Notes under the pieces: model-generated | The model's input: the letters and a program-made list of their open reading frames with translations, nothing else | The model's database searches: none | What the model was told of the DNA's origin: nothing | NCBI GenBank assembly: GCA_964498845.1 | Contig: CAZCIA010000001.1 | Span: 1 to 37,172 of the forward strand | Direction: 5' to 3' | From: Candidatus Micrarchaeota archaeon | GTDB taxonomy: Archaea; Micrarchaeota; Micrarchaeia; Micrarchaeales; Micrarchaeaceae | DNA: 37,172 bases | Shown here: positions 873 to 33,709 of the stretch, piece by piece | Numbering within the stretch: position 1 is the stretch's first letter | Layout: each line of letters starts with the position of its first letter | Translations under genes and position numbers: made by a program

Positions 873-1709
873 CTAGTGTCTGAAAATCAGGCTTATCAGA
901 TGCATTACGGCGTATACTGGCTCATAGACTATCGGGAATGCTGTTATCCCGCTGCCTATCGCATAGTAGTCGTTAAGCAGCGTTGCCTGCGTTATTATGG
1001 TAACGCTCGTCTGCCTGTATATCAGCGGGCTTGCAACCGACCTGACATTGATGTTGACCTTGTATACTCCTGGCTCGCTCAATGAAACCGGATATGTGAA
1101 AGTCTTTGTTGCATGGTGCAATGCTATGACGCTCTGCGTTATGTTGTATGCGGGCAGTCCTGAAAGGCTTATCAGGAAGAGGCTGTCTGAAACCCCTGTG
1201 TTGTTTATGCTAACATATATGTTTGTGGGGACCCCCGCGCTCACGTACGCCGTGTCTGGCGTCACACCAAGCTTGAAGACGTTAGGCGTAACATTAATCT
1301 CTGCAATGAACCTTATTGCGCCAAGCTTTGAGTAATTGCCCACATTCACTGCTGTGAGATTAAACTTGTAAGTGCCGTTGGGGGTGCTTGCTGCCGGCGT
1401 TATCTTCACCGATAGCGTTGGATTGTAGAGCGACGAGTTCTGCGCTATCCACCCCGAAGGAAGACCTGTCACCACGAACTTGTTCCAGCCAAGGTTGTTC
1501 ACCACCCCTGTGCTGTTTGTAGTGGCTGCCGATATGGTCACATAGAATGTCTGGCCAGGCCCGTCCTTGCCGATGTAGACCGTGCTGTTCGCCGTGTAAA
1601 CCGTGGTGTTGAACGGCTGTATTATGCTTACGTATGAGGCGCTGCTCGCCTGCATGAGCACTATTGCAAATACCGCAGCGGAAACCGCAAACGAGGATGA
1701 TGATCCCAC
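873..1709 (-). CDS. Secreted or membrane-anchored surface glycoprotein candidate with NEW3/CARDB-like Ig-fold segments
   Basis: 278-aa ORF with a GTG start. It has a signal-like N-terminus (SFAVSAAVFAIVLMQASSA), about ten N-x-S/T sequons and a hydrophobic C-terminus. The segment GLPSGWIAQNSS...TPNGTYKFNLTAVN resembles the PxGW...pGxY pattern of NEW3/COG1470 surface domains. Confidence 0.6.
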   Translation of the reverse strand: MGSSSSFAVSAAVFAIVLMQASSASYVSIIQPFNTTVYTANSTVYIGKDGPGQTFYVTISAATTNSTGVVNNLGWNKFVVTGLPSGWIAQNSSLYNPTLSVKITPAASTPNGTYKFNLTAVNVGNYSKLGAIRFIAEINVTPNVFKLGVTPDTAYVSAGVPTNIYVSINNTGVSDSLFLISLSGLPAYNITQSVIALHHATKTFTYPVSLSEPGVYKVNINVRSVASPLIYRQTSVTIITQATLLNDYYAIGSGITAFPIVYEPVYAVMHLISLIFRH

Positions 1710-1824: not shown

Positions 1825-3081
1825 ATGTACGCCTGTGATAGTGTGAGATTATCGGTTGCCGCAGCCCTGGCTGTTATAGCGGTCATCGTTGCAGGATCCT
1901 TGGTTTATATATATTCTGGCTCCATTGCAGGAAAACCTCAAGCCGGCTATCTATTGAGCATAACCGACCCTCCGCAGGTGCCGGCAGGAACGTCATCGCT
2001 TGTCCTGTACTACTACTCGATAGCGGCCCATACAACAAACAGCGGATGGATATCAGCTAACATCACGGGGAGCGTGGACCTCATGCGTGTGCTAAACTCC
2101 AGCCAGGTGCTAGGCAGCATAAACCTGCCTAACGGCTCCATCGTAAACCAGGTGAGGTTCAACGTAAGCTCAGCGTCCATAACGATAAACGGCACCACCT
2201 ATAATGTTACGGTACCAAGTAAAAGCGTAACGGCGCACCTCGTGGCTAACAGCAAGGTGAACTCGGGCAGCGGCGCCCTGATAGACCTGTCGCCTGTCGT
2301 TGTAACCATATACACGAACAGCACAAGCGTGCCAAAGGACTTCGTCCTTGTGCCTTCGGTCATAGCAATCAGCATAGGCAGCAGGCACGTAAGCTTAAGG
2401 GCAGGAGAGATGGAAGCGCTTAACTCCAGCGAAAGGGAGGCGCTTGACATGCTCGGTAGCAACATAAGCATAACAGGCGCCGCGCTTAGCGCGTCGAACG
2501 GCAACGTCACAGACCTGTTAGTCACGGTGAGGGATAACTCCAACAGCAGCGTTGACCTGCACTTCATAGGTGTATTCGGCAGGGAGAACGTAGTGGTGAA
2601 TTTGAGCATGTTCGCTGCCGAAGCAAACACAATACTTAGCAGGATGGCGGCAAACGCAAGCGCGAACTCCATCGGCGATTTCGAGGACATGATGAGCAGG
2701 CTGAACGTGACCAGCGCCATGCTGGCGAATCTGAGTACAAATAGCACGTTGTACAACTCGCTAAGCGCAAGGCTTGCTGCTGATCTGGCCCAGCGTACAA
2801 CCGAGGAGGGTGACTTCCAAGAGAATGAGAACATGCTGCCGTTCCTGATCACAGCCAACGGCACCTTGGCAGTACCTTTTGCATCAGGTGAAATGAATGA
2901 CAATGAGGACAGTCCTGGATTTACCCTTCAGCCCGGACAATCGCACACCTTCTCTTTCATCGGCAGGATCACGCCTGCAAGCAGGTACTTCACAATAACT
3001 CCGGTAGCAGGCGCAAATTACAGGATAACTGTTGTAGGAGAAGAGGATGCAAGGATATCCACCAATGTCACAGCCGCTTAG
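1825..3081 (+). CDS. Membrane-anchored extracellular protein, DUF4382-like N-terminal beta domain
   Basis: 418-aa ORF with an N-terminal TM segment (LSVAAALAVIAVIVAGSLVYI). The stretch LSITDPPQVPAGTSSLVLYYYSIAAH...WISANITGSVDLMRVLNSSQVLGSINLPNGSIVNQVRFNV...VTVPS matches the DUF4382 pattern. It is very rich in N-x-S/T sequons. A TATA-like CCTTTATAATC lies about 25 nt upstream. Confidence 0.6.
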   Translation: MYACDSVRLSVAAALAVIAVIVAGSLVYIYSGSIAGKPQAGYLLSITDPPQVPAGTSSLVLYYYSIAAHTTNSGWISANITGSVDLMRVLNSSQVLGSINLPNGSIVNQVRFNVSSASITINGTTYNVTVPSKSVTAHLVANSKVNSGSGALIDLSPVVVTIYTNSTSVPKDFVLVPSVIAISIGSRHVSLRAGEMEALNSSEREALDMLGSNISITGAALSASNGNVTDLLVTVRDNSNSSVDLHFIGVFGRENVVVNLSMFAAEANTILSRMAANASANSIGDFEDMMSRLNVTSAMLANLSTNSTLYNSLSARLAADLAQRTTEEGDFQENENMLPFLITANGTLAVPFASGEMNDNEDSPGFTLQPGQSHTFSFIGRITPASRYFTITPVAGANYRITVVGEEDARISTNVTAA

Positions 3082-3609
3082 CTACGTGTAGGTGGTGCTG
3101 AACGCCAGCACCTGCTGCGTCGTCTGGTAGCTGTTCGGAAGCCCCGAGTACGTGTAATTGAGCCATACGTACCCAATGAACGTGCTGCCAAGCGCGCCAG
3201 TAGCAGGCGTGCTGCCAGGCGCATCATAACAGAATACGGTGAACTGCTTCGGCGCGTTCGAGAAGAGTATAGGGTAGGGTGCGTTCCCTGTCATCTTCAC
3301 GTTGCCGTACCTTGGCCCGACCCCTGTGCCGTTCACCTCGCTTGAGCAGCCTATACCGGTTATCTTTATTGATGCGCCTATGGACTGTGTAAGCAGAAAT
3401 GTGAAATTGCCGTTCGTGAACATTGCGAAGGAGGAGCACGAGAATGACGGGGCAGGGTTGCAGTACTGCGGCGCGAACTGCGGGCTGAAAACCCCGAGCT
3501 GGAATATTATGGCCACGGTGATGGCGACCACGGCTATGACTATGCCGTACGATGTTAGGAAATCTATAGTTGCCTGGGACCTTGCACCGCCGCTATGGCT
3601 GGCTCTCAT
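3082..3609 (-). CDS. Archaeal type IV pilin-like protein (class III signal peptide)
   Basis: The N-terminus MRASHSGGARS|QATIDFLTSYGIVIAVVAITVAIIFQLGVF has the pattern of a charged leader, small residue, Q, then a hydrophobic helix. The rest is a beta-rich, sequon-bearing domain. The start lies 5 nt after the stop of the response-regulator gene. Confidence 0.7.
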   Translation of the reverse strand: MRASHSGGARSQATIDFLTSYGIVIAVVAITVAIIFQLGVFSPQFAPQYCNPAPSFSCSSFAMFTNGNFTFLLTQSIGASIKITGIGCSSEVNGTGVGPRYGNVKMTGNAPYPILFSNAPKQFTVFCYDAPGSTPATGALGSTFIGYVWLNYTYSGLPNSYQTTQQVLAFSTTYT

Positions 3610-3614
3610 CTAAT

Positions 3615-4826
3615 CTATCCCTCCTTTTCATCGTCCGCACTCTTACCCACATGAAGCTTGACGCCGTTCGCATCCCTGGTTATCTTTATGTCGAGGTTCT
3701 TCATGCCGAATAGGCGCTGCAGCTCATCGTATGTGTATGACCCAGCATCACCCTGGAACCCTCCACCCCTGCCCTTGAGTATCTCGTTCCTCCTCTGTTT
3801 TATTTGATCCCTGTCGGATTCCTCGTACACCAGGGTGAGTTTCGGCACCTCCTTGGATTCGAACAGGCTGTCTATGTTAAGGTCAAGCAGCTTGTATCCA
3901 GCGTCCTGCAGTATGAATGGCAGCACGGCGGTGAACTCGTTCTTTATCTCATCAATTATCGCATTGACTTCCTCCTTCTTACCGGCAAGGACAAACTCGT
4001 CGCCGTTAAGGAAGCCGGTGAACGCGCTACCGCCCTTCACCTTTATCGAGTCCTGGAGCAGCTGCGATATGAGCCTGAGTATTACCACTCCTGCATGCTC
4101 CCCGAACCTCCTGACATATGCCCCGAGCCCGTCTATCTTTATCGTGCCTATTGTATAAAGTGCGCCCTCCTTTATGGACCGCTCAACCTCATTAGATATG
4201 CGCTCCTCGTCAGGCAGGTCGACCAACGGGTCGAACCGCTTCCCCTTCTTTTTCAGGAATATGGTTACAAGGGTGCGCAGGTCGCTTGGGTCGAACGGCT
4301 TCTTTATATAGTAATCCGCGCCGTACTTTATGCCCTTGAAGCGGTTGCTTGTCGGGTCCATCGCGCTCACCAGTATGACGACTATGTTGCTTGTGCTCGG
4401 GTCGCTCTTTATGGTCTGGCATATGTCGAGGCCGTCCTTGTGCGGCAGCATCAAATCTAATATAACAAGCTCAGGCCTGACAGCCCTGACCGCCTCTATT
4501 GCCTCCCCTCCATCATATATCTGGCCTACCTCGAATCCCTTCCCTATCGAGAGAGCCATCAGCTTGCTTATGTTCTTGTCATCCTCTATTATGAGCACTC
4601 GGCGCATAGCCGATTCCTGCTGCAGCATGTAGTAGGTCATCACTCCGCCGCTGCTCCTTGAAGCTATCAGCTTGGAATCCTCGAGATCCTTGAGGGAGCC
4701 CTTCAGTTCGTCCTCCGACACCCCACGGCTGAACATCATGTCGCTCAGTTCATTGTAACTGAGCTGCTGCTTCTCATTGACAAGAGCCATTATCACTTCC
4801 TTTAAGGGAACATTGCCCGCCGCCAT
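3615..4826 (-). CDS. Response regulator: small winged-helix-like N-domain, CheY-like receiver, and GGDEF-like (NGDEF) palm domain
   Basis: The REC domain spans aa ~75-192: acidic pocket LIIEDD, phospho-acceptor VILD(124)LMLP, VSAMD, YYIKKPF. The C-terminal aa ~198-330 align motif-by-motif to GGDEF domains. DPLVDLPDEE matches DxLTxLxNR, IKIDGLGAYVRRFGEHAG matches lDiDhFKxiNDxxGHxxGD, and FLNGDEFVL (nt 3993-4007) matches GGDEF. Confidence 0.8.
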   Translation of the reverse strand: MAAGNVPLKEVIMALVNEKQQLSYNELSDMMFSRGVSEDELKGSLKDLEDSKLIASRSSGGVMTYYMLQQESAMRRVLIIEDDKNISKLMALSIGKGFEVGQIYDGGEAIEAVRAVRPELVILDLMLPHKDGLDICQTIKSDPSTSNIVVILVSAMDPTSNRFKGIKYGADYYIKKPFDPSDLRTLVTIFLKKKGKRFDPLVDLPDEERISNEVERSIKEGALYTIGTIKIDGLGAYVRRFGEHAGVVILRLISQLLQDSIKVKGGSAFTGFLNGDEFVLAGKKEEVNAIIDEIKNEFTAVLPFILQDAGYKLLDLNIDSLFESKEVPKLTLVYEESDRDQIKQRRNEILKGRGGGFQGDAGSYTYDELQRLFGMKNLDIKITRDANGVKLHVGKSADDEKEG

Positions 4827-4939
4827 CCGATCGCCTGATAGATATCAACGGAAAGAATATTATGCTTTGCACCATTCCTTTGGTTTGCGGCAGTCATCAA
4901 AACTTTAATAAACCTTTAAAGGGGATATCCTCTGGTTCG

Positions 4940-5890
4940 ATGGTGCGCAGGATCCACATAGGGCTTGGCATTGTAGTCGCAATAATAGTGGTAGTTGTCG
5001 TGCTGATACTCTTCGCCTTCGGCAGCGGAGCGCTGAGCATAAGCGGCCCGACCACTCTGACGCTCACACAGGCGCCTACCGTGATCAGGGTGGGGGGCAC
5101 CCAGTACGTTGTGAGCCTGCACAGCGGCCAAGCGGCGTCAAACCTGGCTTACATATACATAGGCAAATCTCCTGTCTTCATAAACCCGACGCTGAACGTC
5201 ACGCTCATACTCCACAACTCAACAAGGGTAAGCGGAAGCCTGAGCAGGCAGGCCGACATGCAGATACGCCTTAATTCATTGACAAACGCAACAGCATTAG
5301 TGACGATAACGCCGCTAACCGCCTATCTGAACGAGAGCCCTGATTACAGCCGTATCCACGTGATAGGCCAGGTGACAGGGCCTATGGCGAACTACTCCAC
5401 CACGATAATAATATACAACGTGAGCTTGCAGAGCACCACAACTGTTAGCCAGGCATTGACCCCGCAGCAGCGCATAACCGCGTACCTGAAAAACAACGAG
5501 TGGTACGGGCTTATGCAGAATTACACCATAGCGTATGCAAACACAAGGAACTGCACGCAGTCGGTGTACACCAACGATTACGCGAGCCATTACAACAGAA
5601 TTCCGACCGGGCCGGCCACGTACGCGAATGCGACGGCTATTGCGCCGTACGCGATTACATACAATGTGACAAGCGTTGGCAAAGGCAACTATGCGGCTGT
5701 GTGGTCGACCGTGTCGTCCACCTCTTACACTACAGGGTCCGCCCTCACGCTCGTTGTCAACCTCACAACAGGCAGCATCCTGAACACCACCATGGGCGGC
5801 GTGTTCAAGGATCTCAGCTTTTCATCGCTCCAGAACTCATTAGTTATGGCGTCCGCATTCGGCAACGCCTGCGGCATACTTGTTGCATGA
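4940..5890 (+). CDS. Membrane-anchored extracellular glycoprotein, unknown function
   Basis: The track ORF starts at 4862. I prefer ATG 4940 (MVRRIHIGLGIVVAIIVVVVVLILFAF, charged N-terminus plus TM) because TTTAATAA/TTTAAA boxes at 4903-4920 fall inside the longer version. The protein has many N-x-S/T sequons and no recognisable enzymatic motif. Confidence 0.6.
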   Translation: MVRRIHIGLGIVVAIIVVVVVLILFAFGSGALSISGPTTLTLTQAPTVIRVGGTQYVVSLHSGQAASNLAYIYIGKSPVFINPTLNVTLILHNSTRVSGSLSRQADMQIRLNSLTNATALVTITPLTAYLNESPDYSRIHVIGQVTGPMANYSTTIIIYNVSLQSTTTVSQALTPQQRITAYLKNNEWYGLMQNYTIAYANTRNCTQSVYTNDYASHYNRIPTGPATYANATAIAPYAITYNVTSVGKGNYAAVWSTVSSTSYTTGSALTLVVNLTTGSILNTTMGGVFKDLSFSSLQNSLVMASAFGNACGILVA

Positions 5891-8122: not shown

Positions 8123-8225
8123 TCTTATACCAGATTTTGCACTGAAGTAACTTTTGGGTATCTCATTAAACCTAAATACGTGGAAAGTATTTAAATCTAG
8201 TTCGAGATATTTTGGTGGTGGAAGG

Positions 8226-8639
8226 ATGGCCAGGGATGGTGACCCTGACAGGGGTAGCCTCTTGAAGAAGGCGCAAAGAGACTTCGAACTAGCCAGACGC
8301 TACAGGGACGCGAAGGAACTGGTGGCAGCCTCCCTGCTCTACAACAGCGCAATAGAGCGTGTGCTGCGTGCGCTCTTCATGAAGAAGACGCACAAGACTC
8401 CGCCAGAGAAGGCATCCATAGCATATCTTACCAGGCAGGCTGACCTGCCGACTGGCATAAAAGAAGAGCTGATGTCGCTGCAGGACGAGATGGCAGACGT
8501 GATGGAGGAGGAGCTGGAGATAGAGCATGCGGAGGAGGACATACTGACTGGTGTGGAGGAGAGGAAGGAGTACAACACGGTGCTCAACAAGGGCACCATA
8601 GCCAAAAGGCTGATGGGCTACGCCTACGCAAAAGGATAA
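8226..8639 (+). CDS. HEPN-like helical domain protein
   Basis: LLKKAQRDFELARRYRDAKELVAASLLYNSAIERVLRALFMKK resembles the first two helices of HEPN (PF05168-type). ATG 8226 is preferred over the TTG at 8154 because TATTTAAAT lies about 30 nt upstream. I saw no clear Rx4-6H motif and no adjacent nucleotidyltransferase. Confidence 0.5.
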   Translation: MARDGDPDRGSLLKKAQRDFELARRYRDAKELVAASLLYNSAIERVLRALFMKKTHKTPPEKASIAYLTRQADLPTGIKEELMSLQDEMADVMEEELEIEHAEEDILTGVEERKEYNTVLNKGTIAKRLMGYAYAKG

Positions 8640-8693
8640 GTAAGTTCGGGGCCATAGACTTGCAGGTATACCTAAGGGTGCCTGCGTGCTTCG

Positions 8694-9347
8694 ATGATTA
8701 AGGAGATATTCAACGGTGTATACAAGATAGACGGCAGGCTTGCAACAAGGAACATGCTGCCAGGCAGGAAGGCCTACACGGAGGAGCTGTTCAAGGACAA
8801 GAGCGGGGAGTACAGGATGTGGAACCCTTACAGGAGCAAGCTTGCCGCTGCTATACTCAACGGCCTGAAGCACTTCACATTCGACGCGATGAGCTCCGTG
8901 CTGTACATAGGCGCTGCCACAGGTACTACGGCAAGCCACATCAGCGACATAGTAAAGGGCGGCAGCGTCTACTGCATCGAGCTTTCGGAGAGGAACATGC
9001 GAGAACTTGTAAGAGTCTGCGAGGACAGGAAGAACATGCTGCCGATACTTGCCGATGCGAGATACCCCGACAGATATAACAGCATGGTAGATGAATGTGA
9101 TATAATTTACCAGGACGCTTCAGCAAGAGAGCAGGCGCAGATGCTCAAGATAAACTCAAAATTCCTCAAGAGCGGCGGTACGGCATACTTCGTTATAAAG
9201 TCGCAGAGCATCGACGTGTCGATGGATCCGAGGGCTGTATTCAAGAGGGAGCTTAGCCTTCTGAAGGACGAATTCGAGTTTATCCAGACCGTGCCCCTGG
9301 AGCCTTTCGACCGCTTGCACATGTTCGCAGTGCTTAGGAAAAAATAA
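8694..9347 (+). CDS. flpA: Fibrillarin-like rRNA/tRNA 2'-O-methyltransferase
   Basis: YRMWNPYRSKLAAAILNGL and the SAM motif VLYIGAATGTTASHISDIV are present. The 217-aa length is typical of archaeal fibrillarin. Confidence 0.9.
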   Translation: MIKEIFNGVYKIDGRLATRNMLPGRKAYTEELFKDKSGEYRMWNPYRSKLAAAILNGLKHFTFDAMSSVLYIGAATGTTASHISDIVKGGSVYCIELSERNMRELVRVCEDRKNMLPILADARYPDRYNSMVDECDIIYQDASAREQAQMLKINSKFLKSGGTAYFVIKSQSIDVSMDPRAVFKRELSLLKDEFEFIQTVPLEPFDRLHMFAVLRKK

Positions 9348-9367
9348 ATTAGATAGTTAGTGTTATC

Positions 9368-10192
9368 ATGAACCTGAAATCGTACGGCAGTGCGCTAGAC
9401 TATGCAGCCAAGAACGGAAGGCTTCTCATGTGCCGGTACTGCGGGGAGGAGAGCACTGCGATCGGCGGCATTGCGATGTGCTCCAACTGCGAGCTGCCAG
9501 TCAATACAGAAAAAGAGGCGCTACAGTCTAACGCCACGGCCTTCACAGCTATATCGAAGATAAAGGAGCTTATGGAGAACAGCGATTACGAGAACGCTGC
9601 GAAGGAATACGATGCAGTGTACAAGAGCGGCAAGGACCCCTCCTACTTGTATGCGGAGGCGCTGCTGCGCATAAAGCAGTCCAATGCGCAGATAGCGGGC
9701 ATAAGATATGACAGGAAGGGTTTCATGGAGGAGAACACGGCGTTCAGGGATAACGGCGCAAAATTGGCGTCCGCGGCGAGGGGGCTTCTCAACGACACGA
9801 TAAACGCATGCACAAAGCAGATGAACGAGGAGAGGCCACCGCTCGGCGTTGTTTATCTTGCATTCCTGTGCCATATGAAACTATCAAATCTAAGGGAGGC
9901 TGTGGTGCTGCTCAAGGTTATAGAGGGCATTGATAGCACCTACACAGGCGCATATTCAAGGATGATGCTGGACCTCAACCTGCATAAGCCGGAATCCGTG
10001 ATACGGAACGCAGAGCAATTGCTTAAGCCGAATTCCTTCTCAATCAACGCGCTTTTCTACATCGCTGTGGCGCTTTTCGACATGAAGAGATACAGCGACG
10101 CTAAGAGCATAATCGTGATGCTTCAGCCGCACCTGCAGAACGGGCAGACGATGGCACTCGCATCGGAAATAGAGGAGGCCATCCATGTATAG
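9368..10192 (+). CDS. Zn-ribbon plus TPR-like helical repeat protein, unknown function
   Basis: N-terminal CRYCGEE...CSNCELP gives a CxxC-x14-CxxC ribbon. The remainder is helical with TPR-like spacing (DYENAAKEYDAVYK..., RYSDAKSIIVML). Confidence 0.5.
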   Translation: MNLKSYGSALDYAAKNGRLLMCRYCGEESTAIGGIAMCSNCELPVNTEKEALQSNATAFTAISKIKELMENSDYENAAKEYDAVYKSGKDPSYLYAEALLRIKQSNAQIAGIRYDRKGFMEENTAFRDNGAKLASAARGLLNDTINACTKQMNEERPPLGVVYLAFLCHMKLSNLREAVVLLKVIEGIDSTYTGAYSRMMLDLNLHKPESVIRNAEQLLKPNSFSINALFYIAVALFDMKRYSDAKSIIVMLQPHLQNGQTMALASEIEEAIHV

Positions 10193-15556: not shown

Positions 15557-15694
15557 TTAGACCGATTAGTATAGCCATAGTATGTTTTTAAGCCTTGCCT
15601 GATTTCATGTGAGAAAATTGCTGGCGCGCTTCCGCAAAAGAGAAAGTATTAAAAAAGAGATATGTATTATCTTGTTGGCGATAACGGTGAGCAA

Positions 15695-16072
15695 ATGAGC
15701 ATCTTTAACAAGCTGGGTGGTGTGCTGGGCACATCCAAGGAACTCGACGTAGAGGAATATATGAATTCTGCAGAGATGGAGAATGTAGACGTGATGAACG
15801 AACCAGCAGACTTTTACATAAAGCCGGTTGCATTGCAGCAGGAATCTGACCTTGCCCTGATAGAGGACGAGCTGCGCAGGAAGAATATCATACTTCTCAA
15901 CATATCCGAGATGGCGAAGAGGCCGAACACCCTCAAGGGCATGATCGACAAGCTGAAGGACTATGTGGCAAAGACGAACGGTGACATAGCGAGGCTTGAC
16001 GAAGCGAAGATACTTCTTACTCCGACAAAGGTAAAGATAATAAAGAGCAGGAAGCAGGCCCCGAGCAGATAA
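15695..16072 (+). CDS. sepF: Cell division protein SepF (archaeal FtsZ membrane anchor)
   Basis: The N-terminus MSIFNKLGGVLG looks amphipathic. The core FYIKPVALQQESDLALIEDELRRKNIILLNISEM...GDIARLDEAKILLTP matches the SepF/DUF552 pattern. ATG 15695 is preceded by GGTGA-N4, and TATTAAAAAA lies about 40 nt upstream. Confidence 0.8.
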   Translation: MSIFNKLGGVLGTSKELDVEEYMNSAEMENVDVMNEPADFYIKPVALQQESDLALIEDELRRKNIILLNISEMAKRPNTLKGMIDKLKDYVAKTNGDIARLDEAKILLTPTKVKIIKSRKQAPSR

Positions 16073-18577: not shown

Positions 18578-19588
18578 TCAGACCAGCTCCAGGTTGAGGT
18601 CTCCGAGCGGCGGTGCGTTCCTATCAATTCCAAGGCCGAACTTCGGTGTTACTCCTGTGACTATTGACATCACGCGTATCTGGTCGTTCAGCTCCGGTAT
18701 CAGCCTTGCGCCGAATATCACGTTCGCCTTCTCATCCATGCCCTCCGTGACGCCCTGCCCTATTGCTGTCGCCTCCTGTATAGTGAGTGAGGTGCCACCT
18801 GCAACGTGCACAAGCGCGCTTTTGCCTCCTACCAAGTCCACATTGAGCATAGGGTGCGTCAGCGTTGACTTTATCGCCTTGTCGACCTTGTCGTGGCCGT
18901 TGCCTGCGCCAAGGTTTATCACAGCCGTCCCAGCATCACGCATTACAGCCCTGATATCAGCGAAATCAAGATTTATCAGGCTTGGCAGCATTATGGTGTC
19001 TGCAATGCCCCTCACGGCATTGCATGCAACGCTGTCGATCAGCTCGAACGCCTTCTCCATTGGCAGGTTGGGCGCGTAGCTGAGCACGCGGTCGTTCTCT
19101 ATCACAACTGTAGTATCGGTATTCTTGCCGAGCTGCTGAAGCGACCAGTCGGCCTTGGCCTTCCTGCTCCTCTCCAGCGAGAACGGATATGTCACAAATG
19201 CGACTACCAGTGCTCCCTGTTCCTTGGCTATCCTTGCCACTACCGGTGCTGCCCCGCCTCCAGTTCCTCCACCCATTCCAGCTGCTATGAACACCATGTC
19301 GTATCCCGAGATCGCCTCCGCTATCTCGTCCTTAGATGCATCTGCGCACTTTTCACCTACCTCAGGGAATCCGCCTGCCCCTAGCCCGTGGGTTATGTTC
19401 TTGCCTATCAGAACACGCTTGTCGCCCTTCACTATTCCGAGGTGCTTTGCATCCGTGTTAAGGAGAAGCGTGTCAGCGCTCCTTATCCCGTTGCTGTAAA
19501 GACGGTTGACCAGGTTGCATCCCTGGCCTCCAACACCTACCACTGCAAGCTTAGCTACGTATTCCTCCCTGACTTGGTCGCCCAACAT
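18578..19588 (-). CDS. ftsZ: FtsZ/tubulin-family GTPase, paralog A (deviant GGGTGGG signature)
   Basis: G1 VGVGGQGCNLVNRL; GLGAGGFPEVGEKCA; AAGMGGGTGGGAAPVVARIAKE; T7 loop SLINLDFADIRAVM. ATG 19588 is preceded by GGTGA-N4 and lies 24 nt after the stop of paralog B. Confidence 0.85.
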   Translation of the reverse strand: MLGDQVREEYVAKLAVVGVGGQGCNLVNRLYSNGIRSADTLLLNTDAKHLGIVKGDKRVLIGKNITHGLGAGGFPEVGEKCADASKDEIAEAISGYDMVFIAAGMGGGTGGGAAPVVARIAKEQGALVVAFVTYPFSLERSRKAKADWSLQQLGKNTDTTVVIENDRVLSYAPNLPMEKAFELIDSVACNAVRGIADTIMLPSLINLDFADIRAVMRDAGTAVINLGAGNGHDKVDKAIKSTLTHPMLNVDLVGGKSALVHVAGGTSLTIQEATAIGQGVTEGMDEKANVIFGARLIPELNDQIRVMSIVTGVTPKFGLGIDRNAPPLGDLNLELV

Positions 19589-19612: not shown

Positions 19613-20677
19613 TTAGCCTATCATCTCAAGGTCGCTGTAGGATTCCTGCTTCTTCTCCTCCAGCCTGCCGACTATGCTCGCTCCCCTGACCCCTGTCACT
19701 ATGGCCACGATCTCGAGCTGGTCCTCATACCCTGGGATTATCCTGGCGCCCCACTTTACATTGGCCTTCTGGTCCATCTTCTCGGTGATTATCTCACCTG
19801 CATGGACAGCGTCTCCGATAGTAAGCGATGATCCTCCTGAAATGTGCACCAGGGCGCCGCTTGCCCCCTCGAAGTCAACGTCAAGGAGCTTGTTCTTCAG
19901 GACGCCTTCCGCTGCTGAGTTCACCTTGTCCGTGCCCCTTCCGGTTCCAACCGCTATGAAGCCGACTCCGCCACCGACCATGATGCTCCTCACGTCAGCG
20001 AAGTCTATGTTGATCATGCTTGGCTGCGTTATAGTCCACACAAGGCCTCCTATCGCCTTTGCAAGCACAGAATCGGCAAGCGCGAATGCCTCTGTCATTG
20101 GCAGGTTGGGTACTAGCCTGACAAGAGTGTTGTTGTCAAGTATGATCACGCTGTCGCAGTGCTTCCTGAGCTCCTGTATGCCCTCTTCGGCCTTGACCTT
20201 TCTTACCCTCTCAAGATCAAAGGGGTATGTCACCATCGCAACAACTATCGCTCCCTGTTCCTTTGCCACCTGTGCTGCTACGGATATAGCGCCGGTTCCG
20301 GTGCCGCCTCCCATTCCGCCGCACAGGAATACCAGCTGCGAGCTGCTGAACGCCTCCTCTATCATGTTCCTGTCTATCTCTGCGGCTTTTCTTCCTATTA
20401 TCGGATCTCCGCCTGCGCCTAGCCCTCTTGTAAGCGACTTCCCTATCAGAACCTTCTTGATCCTGTCATCTATTATCTTAAAGTGCTGCGCGTCTGTGTT
20501 AACGGCAACGAACTCGGTGCCCTTCACACCCGCCTTGATTAGTCTGTTGACTATGTTGCATCCTGCGCCGCCGAATCCGGCAGTCACAATCTTTATCTGC
20601 GAGGAACTAAAGTCTTCCTGTGGTGTCGTGTTGCTATCTCTTGCTTGTCCCAATAGGTCATTAACGAGGTCGCTCAT
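19613..20677 (-). CDS. ftsZ: FtsZ cell division GTPase, paralog B
   Basis: GFGGAGCNIVNRL; GLGAGGDPIIGRKAAE; GGMGGGTGTGAISVAAQVAKE; T7 SMINIDFADVRSIM. The acidic/hydrophobic C-terminal peptide is ESYSDLEMIG. Confidence 0.9.
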   Translation of the reverse strand: MSDLVNDLLGQARDSNTTPQEDFSSSQIKIVTAGFGGAGCNIVNRLIKAGVKGTEFVAVNTDAQHFKIIDDRIKKVLIGKSLTRGLGAGGDPIIGRKAAEIDRNMIEEAFSSSQLVFLCGGMGGGTGTGAISVAAQVAKEQGAIVVAMVTYPFDLERVRKVKAEEGIQELRKHCDSVIILDNNTLVRLVPNLPMTEAFALADSVLAKAIGGLVWTITQPSMINIDFADVRSIMVGGGVGFIAVGTGRGTDKVNSAAEGVLKNKLLDVDFEGASGALVHISGGSSLTIGDAVHAGEIITEKMDQKANVKWGARIIPGYEDQLEIVAIVTGVRGASIVGRLEEKKQESYSDLEMIG

Positions 20678-28049: not shown

Positions 28050-29039
28050 TTGCCCTTGAGAGTTGTTGAGACCAGGCAGGTACTACAGATAATCACAATA
28101 TTCATGATCGTACAGTTCTTCGGGCTCTTCATGTCAAGCGAGATCTATTCCGGTGCGACATACCAGGAAATCACCAACGCACAGATAGTAACATCTGCTG
28201 TGAGCGCACTCTTCTACATAGTCTACATTGTCATATTTGCTGCGATAATAATCCTGATAATGAAAATCTACAAGGGAGACAAATTCTTTTATATACTGGA
28301 AGGTGCTGTGATATTCATCACGTCGTTCTTCGTCTTCATGATCCTTTCGGGGTTGGTGATAAATAGAGTACTATTCACTGTAAGCGGCAGTCAGATAACA
28401 ACCAGTTTCATCATAGGCATAGTTGCGGCCGTATGGCTCATAGTCTTGAAGAACAAGATTCCTAAGCTCAGGAATGCTACGGCGATAATAGCCAGCGTGG
28501 GCGTTGGCCTTGTCCTGGGAATTAGCTTCAGCTTCCTCGTCGCCTTCATATTCATGGCGATACTCGCTGTATATGATTTTATAGCGGTATTCGTGACAAA
28601 GCACATGGTGACCATGGCTAATGCACTGGGATCGAGGAACCTTGCATTCCTTGTAGGAGTGAGCGAGGTGGAGGCACTTCCGAAGAGCGAGTTCACAAAG
28701 AGGGAGCTTTCCGATTACCAGAAGGAGATGAAGGGCGTGAAGATGAGCCCAGAGCTGAAAAAAATGTACAAAAGCGGAATGCTTCCGGTGCCTGCGCGCA
28801 TGGAGCTTGGCGCAGGCGACCTCGCCGTGCCGCTCATGTTAGCTGTTGCAGCGTACAAAGTATTCCTGAACTTTGCACTGAGCTTCTTTATAATAATTGG
28901 GGCAGTAGGGGGGCTTGTCCTGGCGGCTTACATAGTCAAGAGGTACCAGCGCATGCTGCCTGCGATTCCGCTGCTCCTCTTCGGGATATCAGTTGGCATA
29001 AGCGCATATGCCCTGGTATTCGGGCTTGTCCCGCTCTGA
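28050..29039 (+). CDS. Presenilin/signal-peptide-peptidase family (A22) intramembrane aspartyl protease homolog
   Basis: The protein is multi-pass TM. The catalytic motifs are LAVYDFIAVF (YD) and ELGAGDLAVPLML (GxGD), with a PAL-like MLPAIPLL near the C-terminus. TTG start 9 nt after the mcm stop. Confidence 0.75.
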   Translation: MPLRVVETRQVLQIITIFMIVQFFGLFMSSEIYSGATYQEITNAQIVTSAVSALFYIVYIVIFAAIIILIMKIYKGDKFFYILEGAVIFITSFFVFMILSGLVINRVLFTVSGSQITTSFIIGIVAAVWLIVLKNKIPKLRNATAIIASVGVGLVLGISFSFLVAFIFMAILAVYDFIAVFVTKHMVTMANALGSRNLAFLVGVSEVEALPKSEFTKRELSDYQKEMKGVKMSPELKKMYKSGMLPVPARMELGAGDLAVPLMLAVAAYKVFLNFALSFFIIIGAVGGLVLAAYIVKRYQRMLPAIPLLLFGISVGISAYALVFGLVPL

Positions 29040-29067: not shown

Positions 29068-29096
29068 CTTATTCCTTGATTATCTGTAGGAATTCT

Positions 29097-30932
29097 ATGA
29101 GGGGAGCGATTTTGCGCTATCTAGTACCTATGCTTTTCGTCTTTGCATTGTTTGCGCAGTCATCTGCGGCGCAATCGGGATCCAATGCACAGACACTTAC
29201 AGTGGGCAGTGCATCGCTACTTGCACCAGCAGTCATCAACAACAACACCGGCGCGCTCACAAATATATCTGTAACAGTTACGAAGGGTACTGGCTACATC
29301 AGGATACTCGGGCCGAGCAGCATAGGGGAGGACACCAACGCGTCTGCGATCAACGCTTCGATGTCTGCAGCGCAATACCTAGGGCTAAATTACAGGAATT
29401 ACAATTTTATATACACCATAGAGGATTACAACCAGAGCGTGTCCGGGCCCAGCGCCGGCACAGCGATGACACTGCTTGCGATATCCGCAATATCAGGAAA
29501 ACCGCTGATGCACAATTTCACAGTCACGGGTACAATCTACAACGGCGCGGTAGGCCCGGTAGGCGGGGTTTATGACAAAACCAGTGCAGCGGCTTCGCAC
29601 CACATAAAATTCATAATTGTGCCGATGGCTGCGCAGGGCAGCGAAGAGAACGAGCTATATTACTTCATACAGAGCAGATTCAACATACCACTGATACAGG
29701 CAGCCAACATAAGCGCTGCCGCTGGATATGCTTTCGGCACTTCCCCGATAGCAAACGCAAGCACCACCTTCACGTTCTACAATAATTATCATACGGGGTT
29801 GATTCCAAAAGCACCGCTTTCCTGCAGCAATGGCTGCAACACAACACCATTCAAGGAGCTGGCGGGCTTCACCTTCAACCTTACAGCATCGCAGATATCG
29901 ATGGTAACAGGCTTCCCCAACGCAAGCGCACAGCTTTATAGTGAACTGAACCAGAGCAGGGCGGTAGCCGCGCTAGGGTACCTTTATGTCGGCTCTGACA
30001 TAAGCTTCCTCAATTACATTAACGCGGTTTATTTCTCGAACAGCAATCCGGCCATAGACAGCAGCATGCATGCGCTGCAGAACATAAGCAACTACTGCGC
30101 ATCGCTGAGCGCGCCTGCGCTAACGAAGCAGAACTACGAGTGGGTTATCGCCGGTGAGCTGAGGCAGGCCTGGGGATCATACACAGCGTCCAGCGCATCT
30201 TCCGTATACGGCAACGTCAGCGAATTGACAACAGATGATGTGCTTGCGTCGCTCTACCAGGGAGGGCAGGCCAGCGGGTGGTGCAAAGCGGCGAACGACA
30301 TGTTCGGCATCGCAAACAACATTGGTGGAATCCAAGTAAGCGTGTCGCAGAACCTCTCTGCGGTGGCGAAATCAAGGATCAGCCGCGCGTCCATATACGG
30401 CGACAACTTTTATCTGCTCACTGCGGAGACGGCATACGCTAAAAACAATTACCCGGTGGCAATGATGGATGCCGACTACGCATATGCAAGCGGGATGGCA
30501 GGTACGACAAGCCAGAACATGACCACCGCTCAGCTGATTAACGCATCGGCTGCGATGGCGGCAAACTCAACATACGGGACTTGGGCCACGCAGTTCTCAA
30601 ACGAGGCCATGTTCTACGTGCACCAGTCGGAAATAACCAACAGCGCGGCAGGCGCGCATTCGAATGCGCTCCAGGCCTACAGCGCTGCGCTGCTTGCGCA
30701 GCAGATAAGCAACGACACCATGCTGGTATACCAGAGCGTCTCGCCTGGCAAGGCCACCACCACCATAACGCAGATAATACAGCCTGTGCATTACAACATA
30801 CAGCAGATCATTCTCCTGTTAATACTGACAGTGATGGTGGTTATACTTGTCATCGACTTCATCATACTATTACTTGTCTCGAGGATGATGCACAGGATGC
30901 CTAAGGCCGGATCCGGAAGGCGCAGAAGGTGA
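29097..30932 (+). CDS. Extracellular, C-terminally anchored Lon-like (S16) serine protease domain protein
   Basis: Signal peptide LVPMLFVFALFAQSSAAQ. The catalytic Ser motif is VSGPSAGTAMTLLAISAISGKP, with a Lys candidate in GGVYDKTSAAASHHIKFIIVP. A ~350-aa Ala/Ser/Asn-rich sequon-laden region follows, then a C-terminal TM segment and an RRRR tail. Confidence 0.7.
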   Translation: MRGAILRYLVPMLFVFALFAQSSAAQSGSNAQTLTVGSASLLAPAVINNNTGALTNISVTVTKGTGYIRILGPSSIGEDTNASAINASMSAAQYLGLNYRNYNFIYTIEDYNQSVSGPSAGTAMTLLAISAISGKPLMHNFTVTGTIYNGAVGPVGGVYDKTSAAASHHIKFIIVPMAAQGSEENELYYFIQSRFNIPLIQAANISAAAGYAFGTSPIANASTTFTFYNNYHTGLIPKAPLSCSNGCNTTPFKELAGFTFNLTASQISMVTGFPNASAQLYSELNQSRAVAALGYLYVGSDISFLNYINAVYFSNSNPAIDSSMHALQNISNYCASLSAPALTKQNYEWVIAGELRQAWGSYTASSASSVYGNVSELTTDDVLASLYQGGQASGWCKAANDMFGIANNIGGIQVSVSQNLSAVAKSRISRASIYGDNFYLLTAETAYAKNNYPVAMMDADYAYASGMAGTTSQNMTTAQLINASAAMAANSTYGTWATQFSNEAMFYVHQSEITNSAAGAHSNALQAYSAALLAQQISNDTMLVYQSVSPGKATTTITQIIQPVHYNIQQIILLLILTVMVVILVIDFIILLLVSRMMHRMPKAGSGRRRR

Positions 30933-31399: not shown

Positions 31400-33709
31400 A
31401 TGATAACGGAGATAGAGCTCCGCAACTGGAAGACCCACGGCCATACAAAGCTGGCATTCCAGAAGGGGGTCAACGTCCTTATAGGCATAATGGGATCTGG
31501 AAAGAGCTCGGTAATTGAGGCCATATCCTTCGCCCTCTTTGGGACATTCCCCTCGGTTAAGCAGAGGCGCACCAAGCTGGAGAACATGATAAAGAGCAGG
31601 CCGTCAGCCGAGAGCGAAGCTGAGGTCAGGCTCTCTTTCATTGTCGGGAAGGACCACTACACCGTTACAAGAAAGATAACCGCTGCTGGAGCTACCGCTG
31701 CAAGGCTAGACAAGAACGGGTCGCACCTGCAGTCGCAGCCAGTGCGCGTGAACGAGGAGATAGCCAGCATCCTAAAGGTCGATTACGACACCTTCGCAAG
31801 GGCCATCTATTCTGAGCAGAACGGGATGGAGTACTTCCTGGGCATAGCGAAGGGCGACAGGAAGAAGCAGATAGACGGCATGCTGGGGCTTGATCAGTTC
31901 GCCACAGCAGAGGAGAACTGCACATCACTGATAAACAGCATAAAGACCGTGGCATCTGGCGAAGAGAGTGTCCTGGCGGGGATGGACGTCGCATCATTAA
32001 CAAAGCAGCTGGAGAGGGCGGCATCAGAAAAAGACGCATCGCTGAAAGAGATCGCCGCTCTGAAGAAAAGCGAGGCCTTTGCCAAGACCGAGCTGAAGGA
32101 GCTAGAAGACGCCATGGCAGGGCTGCGTCAGCAATACAGGAAGAGGGACGAGCTGCTGAAGAAAGCTGCTGAATTATCAGGAAAGGTGCAGCTGCTAAGA
32201 GATGAGGTGGAAAAGATAAATGCAAAGACTAGCGGCTTGATGGAAACGGCAGCGTCGAACGTGCTTGCTGCGCAGCTGGCAAAGGAAAAGGAAGCCAAGG
32301 ATGCGATAGAGAGCGCGGAAAAGGTTACGAAGACACTTACAAAGGAGGTCGCCGACCTGCAGGCAGCCATAAAGAACGATGAGAGAAGGCTTGCCGAGAA
32401 GGCCAAGCTGGAGGCCCAAGCGAACCTCGGCGACCTTGCAGCTCTTGAGAAGGAGCTTGCAAAAGAAACGGGATCGCTCAACATCTTGATCGATAAGGTG
32501 GCGCTTGACAGGAGCAGGCTCTCCGATATCAATACTTCACTAAAGGAGCTGGAGAAGCACCTTGCAAAGTGCCCGGTATGCGAGAGGGAGCTTGGCGCAG
32601 AGATGAGCGAGAGGCTGATAGCCGCAAAGCGAGCGGCAGCTGGCGCCTTACAGCTGGAAGCGGCGCAGAACGACAAGCTGGCGGGGGAGAAAAGGTCTGC
32701 CATAAAAAGGATCAGCGAGGAGGTCGGCGCCCTTTCGCTGGCAAAGAGCAGGCTGAAGGATTATGCTGGTGTGGAGGAGGTGCTGCAAAGGAATAGGGAC
32801 CCACTCAAAGCGCTGGCAAAGAGCATGGAGGACTCTGCAAACATGCTGGCGGACAGAAGGCTAGAGCTTGACAAGCTAAAAGAGAGGACCCAGGAAACAA
32901 GAACACTCTTGGAGCTGTACAAGAAAAAGGCAGAACACGAAAGGGACATAGAGAACTACTCAAAGCTTGTGGAGAACAACAGGCGCGAGTCCGATTCGAT
33001 TAAAGTTAGCCAGGGCGATATAGATTCTCTGCAAAGCAGCCTGACCGGGAAGAGCGCTGCGCTGGCAAAGACTACAGCAACAATATCCGGAATAGAGAAG
33101 CAGCTCGCCGGGCTAGATTCAAACATCACAAGCCTTGTGAAGCAGATAGACGGCATAAAGGAGATGCAGCAGAGGATAGAGAAGCGCAGGTCCATAGTCA
33201 AGAACCTGAACGTCTTTAAGGCATCGCTTGTAGAGACAGGGGCATTCCTGAGAAGCAGGCTCACGCAGTCGATAAACAGCCTGATGCAGAGCATCTGGCC
33301 GGAGCTTTACCCGTATGCAGATTACCAGGGCCTGCGGCTTAGCGCGAAGCCTGACGATTACCTGCTTGAAGCTAGCGTTCAGAACAACGGCACAAGCGAC
33401 TGGGTGCAGGTCGATGCTGTTGCAAGCGGCGGTGAGCGCAGCATGGCCTGCCTGACGATGAGGATTGCAATGTCTATGGTGGTTGTCCCGAACCTGAGAT
33501 GGCTCATACTTGACGAACCGACGCACAACATAGATGCAAGTGGCATATCGAGGCTGATAGGCGTGCTCGGCGATGCGCTGCCCAAGGTGGTAGAACAGGT
33601 ATTCATCATAACCCATGATGACAACCTGAAGCAGATAACATCAGCTAAGATCTACCAATTGGACCGTGATAAAGGGGCAGCCGGCTCTACAGAGGTGTCA
33701 GAACTGTAG
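31400..33709 (+). CDS. rad50: Rad50-type SMC-like ATPase with CxxC zinc hook
   Basis: Walker A GIMGSGKSS; long coiled coils with a central hook CPVCEREL; signature SGGERSMACL; Walker B WLILDEPT; H-loop IITHDD. TTTTTATAA lies about 30 nt upstream. Confidence 0.8.
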   Translation: MITEIELRNWKTHGHTKLAFQKGVNVLIGIMGSGKSSVIEAISFALFGTFPSVKQRRTKLENMIKSRPSAESEAEVRLSFIVGKDHYTVTRKITAAGATAARLDKNGSHLQSQPVRVNEEIASILKVDYDTFARAIYSEQNGMEYFLGIAKGDRKKQIDGMLGLDQFATAEENCTSLINSIKTVASGEESVLAGMDVASLTKQLERAASEKDASLKEIAALKKSEAFAKTELKELEDAMAGLRQQYRKRDELLKKAAELSGKVQLLRDEVEKINAKTSGLMETAASNVLAAQLAKEKEAKDAIESAEKVTKTLTKEVADLQAAIKNDERRLAEKAKLEAQANLGDLAALEKELAKETGSLNILIDKVALDRSRLSDINTSLKELEKHLAKCPVCERELGAEMSERLIAAKRAAAGALQLEAAQNDKLAGEKRSAIKRISEEVGALSLAKSRLKDYAGVEEVLQRNRDPLKALAKSMEDSANMLADRRLELDKLKERTQETRTLLELYKKKAEHERDIENYSKLVENNRRESDSIKVSQGDIDSLQSSLTGKSAALAKTTATISGIEKQLAGLDSNITSLVKQIDGIKEMQQRIEKRRSIVKNLNVFKASLVETGAFLRSRLTQSINSLMQSIWPELYPYADYQGLRLSAKPDDYLLEASVQNNGTSDWVQVDAVASGGERSMACLTMRIAMSMVVVPNLRWLILDEPTHNIDASGISRLIGVLGDALPKVVEQVFIITHDDNLKQITSAKIYQLDRDKGAAGSTEVSEL

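Follow-up and report, generated by a model that had tools for sequence, protein, structure and literature searches.

The closest described relatives of the system considered here are response regulators of Candidatus Micrarchaeum that were catalogued by Galperin, Makarova, Wolf, and Koonin (J Bacteriol 2018; PMC5847659). In that census the Archaea were found to be without response regulators with GGDEF or EAL outputs, the only archaeal GGDEF domain then known being that of Methanocella arvoryzae, and a "wHTH-REC-GGDEF" or "REC with inactivated GGDEF" organization (where wHTH and REC represent winged helix-turn-helix and receiver, respectively) was listed for Ca. Micrarchaeum ARMAN-1, ARMAN-2, and AZ1, with the proteins BK997_02000, UNLARM2_0239, and JJ59_05330 referred to as "WspR-like (REC fused to inactivated GGDEF)". 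Accessions for these regulators are EET90385 (UNLARM2_0239), OJI07771, and OJT93977. Table S3 of the same paper gives UNLARM2_0239 as "(wHTH-REC-GGDEF)" with a kinase, UNLARM2_0237, two locus tags off, and BK997_02000 with the kinase BK997_01990; Table S2 assigns to the complete Mia14 genome one histidine kinase (Mia14_0098, GAF/PAS) and one response regulator (Mia14_0100, "wHTH-REC-bGlyc"). Whether such bacterial-type regulators stem from contamination was left open. Here we describe a gene of this kind on contig CAZCIA010000001.1 of a Candidatus Micrarchaeota archaeon (GenBank assembly GCA_964498845.1), within a stretch of 37,172 nucleotides that was analyzed in full and is referred to as the window. 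The gene encodes a response regulator of 403 amino acids that combines a predicted N-terminal winged helix, a receiver, a GGDEF-like domain, and a C-terminal extension.

Because architecture, taxon, and the kinase-x-regulator gene order all agree, the window protein is very likely an orthologue of the catalogued Micrarchaeum regulators. The architecture is genuine and not a new kind, having been listed for this lineage in 2018 (PMC5847659), which an earlier note on this DNA, made from the sequence alone, had missed. If the Mia14 and ARMAN-2 regulators are orthologues as well, as the order of their locus tags (kinase-x-regulator) suggests, one of the two labels, "wHTH-REC-bGlyc" or "wHTH-REC-GGDEF", is inconsistent. 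On balance, we favor the reading that the protein acts as a phosphorylation-switched transcription factor, in which an enzymatically dead GGDEF domain and the C-terminal tail serve as a scaffold for dimerization and regulation. The system to which it belongs is Micrarchaeota-wide and probably the only two-component system of these reduced genomes.

The region singled out in the earlier note (nucleotides 3837-4235, minus strand) was found to be an exact, in-frame match to residues 198-330 of the 403-residue open reading frame (ORF), and to include the quoted strings FDPLVDLPDEE, IKIDGLGAYVRRFGEHAGVVIL, and FLNGDEFVL. Two opposite-strand ORFs in this region (3804-4460 and 3835-4158) are antisense artefacts of the strongly conserved regulator gene. 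The claim that a GGDEF-type palm domain is fused to a receiver was borne out by profile search, hhalign, BLASTP, and Foldseek, on the basis of which the GGDEF fold and homology are real but remote. With Pfam, as the earlier note had proposed to search, PF00990 scored below its cut-off of 23.8 bits (the full protein reached 15.7 bits, the domain on its own 17.5 bits), the sub-threshold match spanning residues 207-287 and profile positions 12-94 of 161; across the family the model was matched at an E-value ≤ 1 in 7 of 17 members (best 2.4e-5). The relationship did reach significance by more sensitive profile methods. When residues 193-403 were used to search 5.8 billion proteins, 19 homologues were detected, of which 17 were built into a family profile and searched against 1.84 billion representatives. 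This profile matched about 23 family members at full length and more than 400 other proteins at an E-value < 1e-3, the latter over profile positions 5-120 only; nine of the ten partial matches that were scanned proved to be bona fide GGDEF proteins, most with an N-terminal REC and some with an EAL domain. Furthermore, (i) hhalign of the family against an alignment of 11 intact GGDEF relatives gave 99% probability (E-value 5.6e-18, 116 columns) and paired FDPLVDLPDE of the window protein with NPLTxLPGN of the intact relatives, in agreement with the proposal that DPLVDLPDEE is the counterpart of DxLTxLxNR; (ii) BLASTP against two REC-GGDEF relatives gave 29-31% identity over about 230 residues (E-values 4e-35 and 6e-35; best alignment 31% over 228 residues, E-value 4e-35), collinear across the REC, the linker, and the first ~100 residues of GGDEF; and (iii) the AlphaFold2 (AF2) model of residues 194-403 (predicted local distance difference test score, pLDDT, 78.7) retrieved GGDEF structures at ranks 1-48 of a Foldseek search of the PDB, including DosC, DgcB, PleD, WspR, and ImcA, with E-values down to 1.7e-4, a probability of 1.00, and target-normalized template modeling (TM) scores of 0.4-0.56. 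The full-length model (pLDDT 82.3) matched the REC-GGDEF regulators WspR, DgcR, and PleD first, with E-values of 3e-14 to 6e-11.

The earlier note had aligned the domain along the whole catalytic core, which was found to hold in part. Significant sequence similarity to GGDEF ends at about residue 313; pLDDT falls below 50 at residues 313-324, and the C-terminal half of the domain is modeled at low confidence. Since the C-terminal halves of the family and of the intact GGDEF domains could not be significantly aligned on their own by hhalign (E-value 0.013, probability 3%), residues 314-352 are placed in the fold from the model alone, in which a strand (331-336) and a helix (339-352) lie where the last GGDEF elements belong. 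Kinship with Cas10, class III cyclases, or CD-NTases, which the earlier note had suggested to check, was rejected: no Pfam family of the class III cyclase, Cas10 palm, or CD-NTase type matched the window protein at an E-value ≤ 10, and Foldseek favors GGDEF, the sole cyclase among its top 50 matches being an adenylyl cyclase at rank 49 (E-value 7.4e-3). A role as a defense-system component was likewise rejected, as the PADLOC defense models gave trivial REC and HATPase matches only.

The residues expected at the active site were compared in four independent alignments of the window domain with GGDEF, all of which gave the same register. Lys230 was found to align with the first Asp of the DxD motif and Asp232 with the second. 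Among the 11 intact relatives the first Asp, the Lys, the Asn, the Asp, the Gly-Asp, and GGDDF are invariant and the second Asp is not, which fits the first Asp being the functional one; the earlier claim that the first metal-binding Asp is kept was therefore mistaken, as the retained Asp is the second, non-invariant one. Relative to PleD, whose residue roles are said to have been worked out by Chan et al. in 2004 and Wassmann et al. in 2007, we take K230 to stand for D327 (metal ligand, first Asp of DxD), D232 for D329 (second Asp of DxD), G235 for K332 (catalytic Lys), V238 for N335 (guanine recognition), R239 for D336 (the residue after N335), V247 for D344 (guanine recognition), F272 for R366 (substrate binding), and N274-G-D-E-F278 for the signature GGEEF. 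The two base-reading positions, given earlier as Arg and Val, are indeed both changed, and Val247 does replace the D344 equivalent; the equivalent of N335 is Val238, however, with Arg239 at the next position. The RxxD I-site position, five residues upstream of the signature (residues 265-268), reads GGSA in the window protein, and its columns in the family are occupied by G/A/D/T/V/R/E and A/L/V/T/G/F.

Across 16 orthologues the same positions were found to be free to vary. NGDEF does stand at the signature position, as the earlier note had reported, but the motif is unconstrained in the family, where it appears as NGDEF, NSDEF, NSDVF, NNTEF, NSEMF, DADDF, NGDDF, NADDF, NSNDF, GEGEF, GNGEF, GESSF, or GDSFF; the columns hold N/D/G, G/S/N/A/E/D, D/T/E/G/N/S, E/V/M/D/S/F, and F, with Phe alone conserved. 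Since the acidic pair of the signature is lost in many orthologues (NSDVF, NNTEF, NSEMF, GESSF, and GDSFF), it is not under selection. The metal position is K/R/A/S/T, plus D or E in one member each, and the positions of G235, V238, and V247 are variable. No family member has a complete catalytic set, so inactivation would be older than the diversification of the family. These patterns indicate that the GGDEF-like domain is catalytically dead and is predicted to make neither cyclic di-GMP (c-di-GMP) nor another cyclic nucleotide. Of the three options left by the earlier note, a degenerate domain and a bacterial-type module both stand, the nearest intact relatives being bacterial REC-GGDEF proteins. 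The third, an active nucleotidyl cyclase with altered substrate specificity, i.e., an archaeal cyclic (di)nucleotide synthase, would be in keeping with the retained palm fold and with the presence of D276 and E277 (in NGDEF) and Asp232 in the window protein, but we judge it highly improbable given that Lys230 occupies the place of the metal-ligand Asp, that the equivalents of K332, N335, D344, and R366 are Gly, Val, Val, and Phe, that orthologues have shed the acidic pair, that the C-terminal half bearing the phosphate-binding residues is unrecognizable, and that the other cyclase families are matched either not at all (Pfam) or at rank 49 (Foldseek).

Loss of catalysis was not accompanied by a general loss of constraint, and the GGDEF-like domain is under purifying selection for a conserved non-catalytic function. 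F198, D199, L201, D203, L204, and P205 are invariant in the family, and G242, R251, L252, S254, Q255, Q258, D259, F269, G271, F278, F298, V301, F304, Q307, Y364, T365, E368, D379, and I382 are invariant or nearly so in the 16 orthologues. The last five of these lie in the tail (residues 353-403), which consists of a Gly-rich loop, a YTYxEL helix, and a beta-hairpin, LDIKITRDxxGVKLxVGK (helix 366-372 and strands 380-385 and 388-393 in the AF2 model, hairpin 380-393); here Y364 and D379 are invariant, and at least 90% of the orthologues retain T365, E368, and I382. In line with the remark in the earlier note that the C-terminal part matches nothing recognized, the search with the family profile found residues 353-403 matched solely in family members or their fragments, with no homologue outside the family.

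The N-terminal region, which the earlier note had missed, is the likelier output of the protein. By profile and model, residues 1-70 are assigned to a wHTH fold. The family N-terminal profile matched the CodY wHTH in the PDB (E-value 1.3e-4) followed by many wHTHs of the ArsR/SmtB, MarR, MecI, Lrp, Lrs14, and TFE types, and individual members matched TrmB (5.7e-6), HTH_20, MarR_2, and HTH_24 at E-values of 6e-6 to 2e-4, the window regulator on its own giving weak matches to wHTH families. The AF2 model has the topology H-E-H-H-E-E in this region, and an IASRSxGG segment is conserved in the family. The receiver that follows was identified by PF00072 at residues 77-187 (E-value 9.6e-23; 80.9 bits against a cut-off of 30.2 bits) and superimposes on OmpR-family receivers in Foldseek with a root mean square deviation of 1.2-1.9 Å; D82, D124, S154, and K176 are invariant in the 16 orthologues, at least 90% of which also retain D83.

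Distribution was scanned in one genome per GTDB species. Eleven full-length matches to the regulator were found at 44-74% identity, all in metagenome-assembled genomes of Candidatus Micrarchaeota/Micrarchaeia, the other matches being bacterial and REC-only; the family is restricted to Ca. Micrarchaeota, where it occurs in 11 GTDB species, with orthologues at 43-74% identity. The window itself is archaeal throughout in gene content, with genes for fibrillarin, GluRS, RpoE/Rpb7, aIF5A, S8e, S24e, L10e, MCM, Rad50, Dph2, aEF-1beta, SepF, and three FtsZ paralogues, and GC content is even across the 37 kb. The earlier statement that the archaeal context speaks against a binning artefact holds up, and is extended by synteny across up to 11 species. 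That the gene derives from bacterial contamination on a mis-binned or chimeric contig might be argued from the near absence of GGDEF domains in archaea (PMC5847659) and from one cluster member labeled Methanothrix sp. in NCBI. This explanation is practically excluded, because synteny is kept across independent assemblies: the gene lies inside 37 kb of archaeal housekeeping genes of uniform GC content, and its orthologues occur in 11 independent Micrarchaeota species assemblies, by fibrillarin and GluRS and in the same local gene order. The Methanothrix-labeled member is partial (P0167, MEM3883806.1, in the cluster of P0003) and almost certainly represents a mis-binned Micrarchaeota contig. In some metagenome assemblies the regulator gene was also found to be split or frameshifted, as in locus L081 (139 plus 246 residues, 8534-8953 and 9001-9741), or to carry scrambled stretches (P0019) or an aberrant C-terminus (P0017); all of these are probably assembly errors, although pseudogenization in some populations is possible.

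The genes around the regulator were compared among the 11 loci (Table 1). An orthologue of the presumed cognate kinase is encoded upstream of the regulator in seven (L001, L003, L005, L006, L008, L009, and L010), with a weak match in L011; it directly adjoins the regulator on the same strand in L010, has the same arrangement as the window in L081, and often stands beside fibrillarin and GluRS in other loci, as it does in the window. The divergent membrane-anchored gene is kept at the same place in 8 of the 11 loci, and its product has no Pfam or NCBIfam family. Translation of this gene probably begins at the ATG at 4940, in which case the divergent promoter region beside the regulator would measure 113 bp. 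On the other side, the regulator stop codon and the ATG of the pilin-like gene are separated by a 5-nucleotide gap, and a GGAGG lies inside the last codons of the regulator, on account of which the two genes are apparently co-transcribed as one operon and linked in translation. The pilin-like orthologues are 175-200 residues long and lie directly downstream of the regulator in L001-L006; seven share the N-terminus [KR]xQ[AS]A[ILM]DF[LM]xSYG followed by a hydrophobic helix, and the protein has two conserved Cys pairs and a C-terminal WxNYTYxxLP motif, with no match in Pfam, NCBIfam, or the PDB. Orthologues of the secreted or surface protein are found downstream of the regulator in L001, L004, L005, and L006.

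Table 1. Coordinates of the regulator gene, its domains and motifs, and the neighboring genes in the window
Feature	Position	Strand	Basis
Response-regulator gene, 403 aa: wHTH - REC - inactive GGDEF-like domain (predicted) - C-terminal extension	3615..4826	(-)	ORF, orthologues, AF2, Foldseek
Winged helix-turn-helix, presumed DNA-binding output, residues 1-70	4617..4826	(-)	Profile vs PDB, Pfam in members, AF2
Receiver (REC), phosphorylation site intact, residues 75-192	4251..4604	(-)	Pfam PF00072, conservation, Foldseek
GGDEF-fold (palm) domain, predicted catalytically degenerate, residues 198-352	3771..4235	(-)	Homology significant 198-313; rest from model only
FDPLVDLPDE, residues 198-207, counterpart of GGDEF entry motif DxLTxLxNR	4206..4235	(-)	hhalign pairing
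Lys230 at the invariant first Asp of DxD	4137..4139	(-)	Same register in four alignments
NGDEF, residues 274-278, at the GG(D/E)EF signature position	3993..4007	(-)	Alignments; F278 alone conserved in family
Family-specific C-terminal extension, residues 353-403	3618..3770	(-)	AF2, conservation, profile search
Presumed cognate sensor histidine kinase, GAF - PAS - HisKA - HATPase_c, 743 aa	5891..8122	(-)	Pfam
Divergent membrane-anchored protein, 315-378 aa, rich in N-glycosylation sequons	4862..5890	(+)	ORF, sequence
Type IV pilin-like protein, 175 aa, class III signal-peptide-like N-terminus	3082..3609	(-)	N-terminal motif, synteny
Secreted/surface protein, 278 aa, signal peptide, C-terminal hydrophobic anchor, many NxS/T sequons	873..1709	(-)	Translation

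Several other features of the window were observed. Family-less, sequon-dense membrane-anchored or secreted proteins flank the regulator at 873-1709 (-), 1825-3081 (+), and 4862-5890 (+), and two of them recur beside the regulator in other Micrarchaeota. A small HEPN-domain protein (8154-8639, +) is encoded between the histidine kinase and fibrillarin, and a weak HEPN gene is found by fibrillarin, near the kinase, in L081 (4616-5014). Three full-length FtsZ paralogues (Tubulin plus FtsZ_C) lie within 16 kb, at 18578-19588 (-), 19613-20677 (-), and 33698-34744 (-), two of them in tandem and with a SepF homologue nearby (15662-16072, +), which is much division machinery for a reduced genome. A protein of 618 residues (29076-30932, +), whose sole Pfam match is the Lon_C proteolytic domain at residues 58-188, adjoins a presenilin-type signal-peptide peptidase (28050-29039, +).

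The DNA upstream of the regulator was examined for promoter elements. A BRE/TATA-like element (B recognition element and TATA box), AAAGCATAATATT, which includes the palindrome AATATT, was identified at window positions 4855-4867, approximately 29-41 nucleotides upstream of the regulator start. It was found to be kept with no more than two mismatches in seven of eight orthologous upstream regions (including L001-L006 and L009), compared with at most three of eight in shuffled controls. A second TATA-like element, TTTAATAA, at about 4903-4912 faces the divergent gene. A scan for sigma-70 promoters and terminators gave counts at the level of shuffled sequence.

Bacterial REC-GGDEF cyclases are activated by phosphorylation-controlled dimerization, and the favored reading adapts this scheme to a transcription factor. 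Asp124 would receive its phosphate from the cytoplasmic GAF-PAS histidine kinase, whose gene lies two genes away, and the phosphorylated REC-GGDEF body would adopt a different dimer arrangement, as happens in WspR, DgcR, and PleD. What would thereby be brought into position are not two active sites for GTP but two N-terminal winged helices for DNA, with the dead GGDEF domain and the tail acting as the dimerization and regulatory scaffold. Likely targets would be its own operon, including the pilin-like gene, and the divergent surface-protein gene, such that the system may tune cell-surface or attachment structures.

Several points weigh against this proposal. DNA binding, dimerization, and phosphotransfer are attributed to the regulator by inference, and the pilin-like protein looks like a pilin by its N-terminal motif only. 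An operator search upstream of the regulator in nine loci found no shared palindrome beyond the AAAGCATAATATT box. In addition, a mere scaffold leaves the strong conservation of the helix RLxSQxxQD and of the tail unexplained, and these could form a ligand or partner site; the old active site also contains basic residues (position 230 is K/R in 10 of 16 orthologues, position 239 is R/K in 11 of them, and R251 is invariant), which could bind an anionic ligand.

Degenerate GGDEF domains often persist as receptors, as in PdeA/CC3396, whose domain binds GTP, and in PopA and PelD, which bind c-di-GMP. By analogy, the dead GGDEF domain and tail may be a receptor for a nucleotide, second messenger, or other anionic ligand that gates the regulator and joins a metabolic or host signal with the kinase input. 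The clustering of family-invariant residues on the helix after the old 'GD' (R251, S254, Q255, Q258, and D259) and in the tail (Y364, T365, and E368) would suit such a function, as would the Lys/Arg that 10 of 16 members have instead of the metal-ligand Asp, and the frequent Arg/Lys at 239. We nonetheless regard a receptor as unlikely: both known binding modes are lost, with Val at the guanine-reading N335 and D344 and no RxxD I-site; residues 230 and 239 are not invariant; and no EAL, HD-GYP, or PilZ domain was found among the 44 window ORFs scanned. A more specific version, which is more doubtful still, holds that the dead domain and tail were re-purposed to take up an anionic ligand, possibly host-derived, in the basic old active site (K230, R239, and R251), and that the sole two-component regulator of Micrarchaeota combines this ligand with the kinase input to switch on pilus and surface genes for attachment to the Thermoplasmatales host. 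If true, the GGDEF fold would be shown to bind ligands in a new way, and a signaling circuit would for the first time have been defined in a DPANN symbiont.

The output may instead be a protein-protein contact, in which the GGDEF-like domain and tail would dock on a partner, e.g., the neighboring pilus or surface machinery, and the winged helix would serve as an interaction or dimerization module. Protein-protein interaction is seen as the prevailing mechanism of archaeal response regulators (PMC5847659), and the tight, conserved linkage with surface and pilin-like genes together with the negative operator search in the nine loci would be compatible with it. The wHTH, however, closely resembles the recognition helix and wing of CodY, TrmB, MarR, and ArsR and carries the conserved IASRSxGG segment, and local transcription factors typically show this combination of a divergent promoter with an operon, for which reasons we think it improbable that docking is the output and retain DNA binding under control of phosphorylation as the preferred function.

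The origin of the family was considered with respect to its nearest intact relatives, in which REC likewise precedes GGDEF and whose annotations read diguanylate cyclase or response regulator. With taxonomy read from cluster names, those members of the closest intact clusters that carry a name come from bacteria, namely Chloroflexota, Thermodesulfobacterium, Thermodesulfobacteriota/Deltaproteobacteria, and Desulfovibrionales. None of 69 bacterial loci retrieved by a REC pattern was found to have the domain of this 'GGDDF' subfamily. The motifs of the intact subfamily, NPLTxLPGN ... DLDNFKxYND ... HIGGDDF ... PxxYDxEDxxxGY, are echoed in the archaeal proteins as DPLIDLPDE ... GFLNxxxF ... PFILQDEGYK. 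The REC-GGDEF body belongs to the bacterial WspR/DgcR/PleD type; most likely, it was acquired from bacteria by an ancestor of the phylum and inactivated before diversification. The simplest history compatible with the sequences would be a single ancient acquisition of a bacterial REC-GGDEF protein, followed by loss of catalysis and gain of the wHTH and tail. A bacterial member of the 'GGDDF' subfamily, P0066 (274 residues), was observed to be degenerate itself (HLGDNTF; YFEPESFEVYARKYG), from which it follows that catalysis has been lost independently within that subfamily.

Micrarchaeota, with about 1,000 genes, belong to the ultra-small DPANN archaea that depend on a host. A single, phylum-wide regulator wired to pilin-like and surface genes would be a good entry point into host sensing and attachment, since a complete Micrarchaeota genome has one histidine kinase and one response regulator (PMC5847659). 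The contamination doubt of 2018 is settled in that the gene for the REC and degenerate GGDEF is genuine and vertically inherited in Micrarchaeota, and bacterial in type. For c-di-GMP biology the result is negative but clarifying: as the window domain is predicted not to be an archaeal cyclase, the generalization that GGDEF/EAL signaling is essentially absent from Archaea, also made in the earlier note, stands. The family clearly exemplifies a pseudo-enzyme domain that selection preserves for a function other than catalysis. Overall, the added value lies in (i) a gene that is genuine and phylum-wide; (ii) a residue-level demonstration of a pseudo-enzyme; and (iii) its linkage, in a DPANN archaeon that depends on a host, with pilin-like and surface genes.

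When set beside known systems, the window family shares its REC-linker-GGDEF order with the bacterial cyclases WspR (3bre, 3i5a), DgcR (6zxb), and PleD (1w25, 2v0n) and with the uncharacterized subfamily of ~310 residues described above (Thermodesulfobacteriota, Chloroflexota, and others). Similarity to the bacterial REC-GGDEF cyclases is collinear over the REC, the entry motif, and the first ~110 GGDEF residues. The family differs from them in that the catalytic and substrate-binding residues and the I-site are all gone and the second half of the domain is too divergent to be recognized, as well as in its added N-terminal wHTH, its added C-terminal helix and hairpin, and its archaeal host. 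Among bacteria, degenerate GGDEF pseudo-enzymes include PopA, PelD, FimX, LapD, CsrD, PdeA/CC3396, and GdpP, in which the fold is kept for a non-catalytic role; PopA is a response regulator, and in such signaling proteins the GGDEF fold serves as a scaffold, receptor, or adaptor. To our knowledge, none of these has an N-terminal wHTH. The receptor-type examples are known to keep either the RxxD I-site (PopA, PelD) or GTP-binding residues (PdeA), whereas the window family keeps neither. Among archaeal proteins, LtrR of Methanococcoides burtonii and FilR1 of Methanosaeta resemble the window regulator in having a (w)HTH ahead of the receiver and a presumed or shown role in transcription control (PMC5847659), but regulators of this type lack a GGDEF-like domain and belong to other lineages (Methanosarcinales and haloarchaea). 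The Micrarchaeum regulators are like the window protein in phylum, in wHTH-REC-GGDEF domain order with an inactivated GGDEF, and in a GAF/PAS kinase two tags off (PMC5847659); the census devotes one sentence to them, and to that description the present analysis adds the tail, the degeneracy at the level of single residues, the phylum-wide spread, and the linkage to pilin-like and surface genes.

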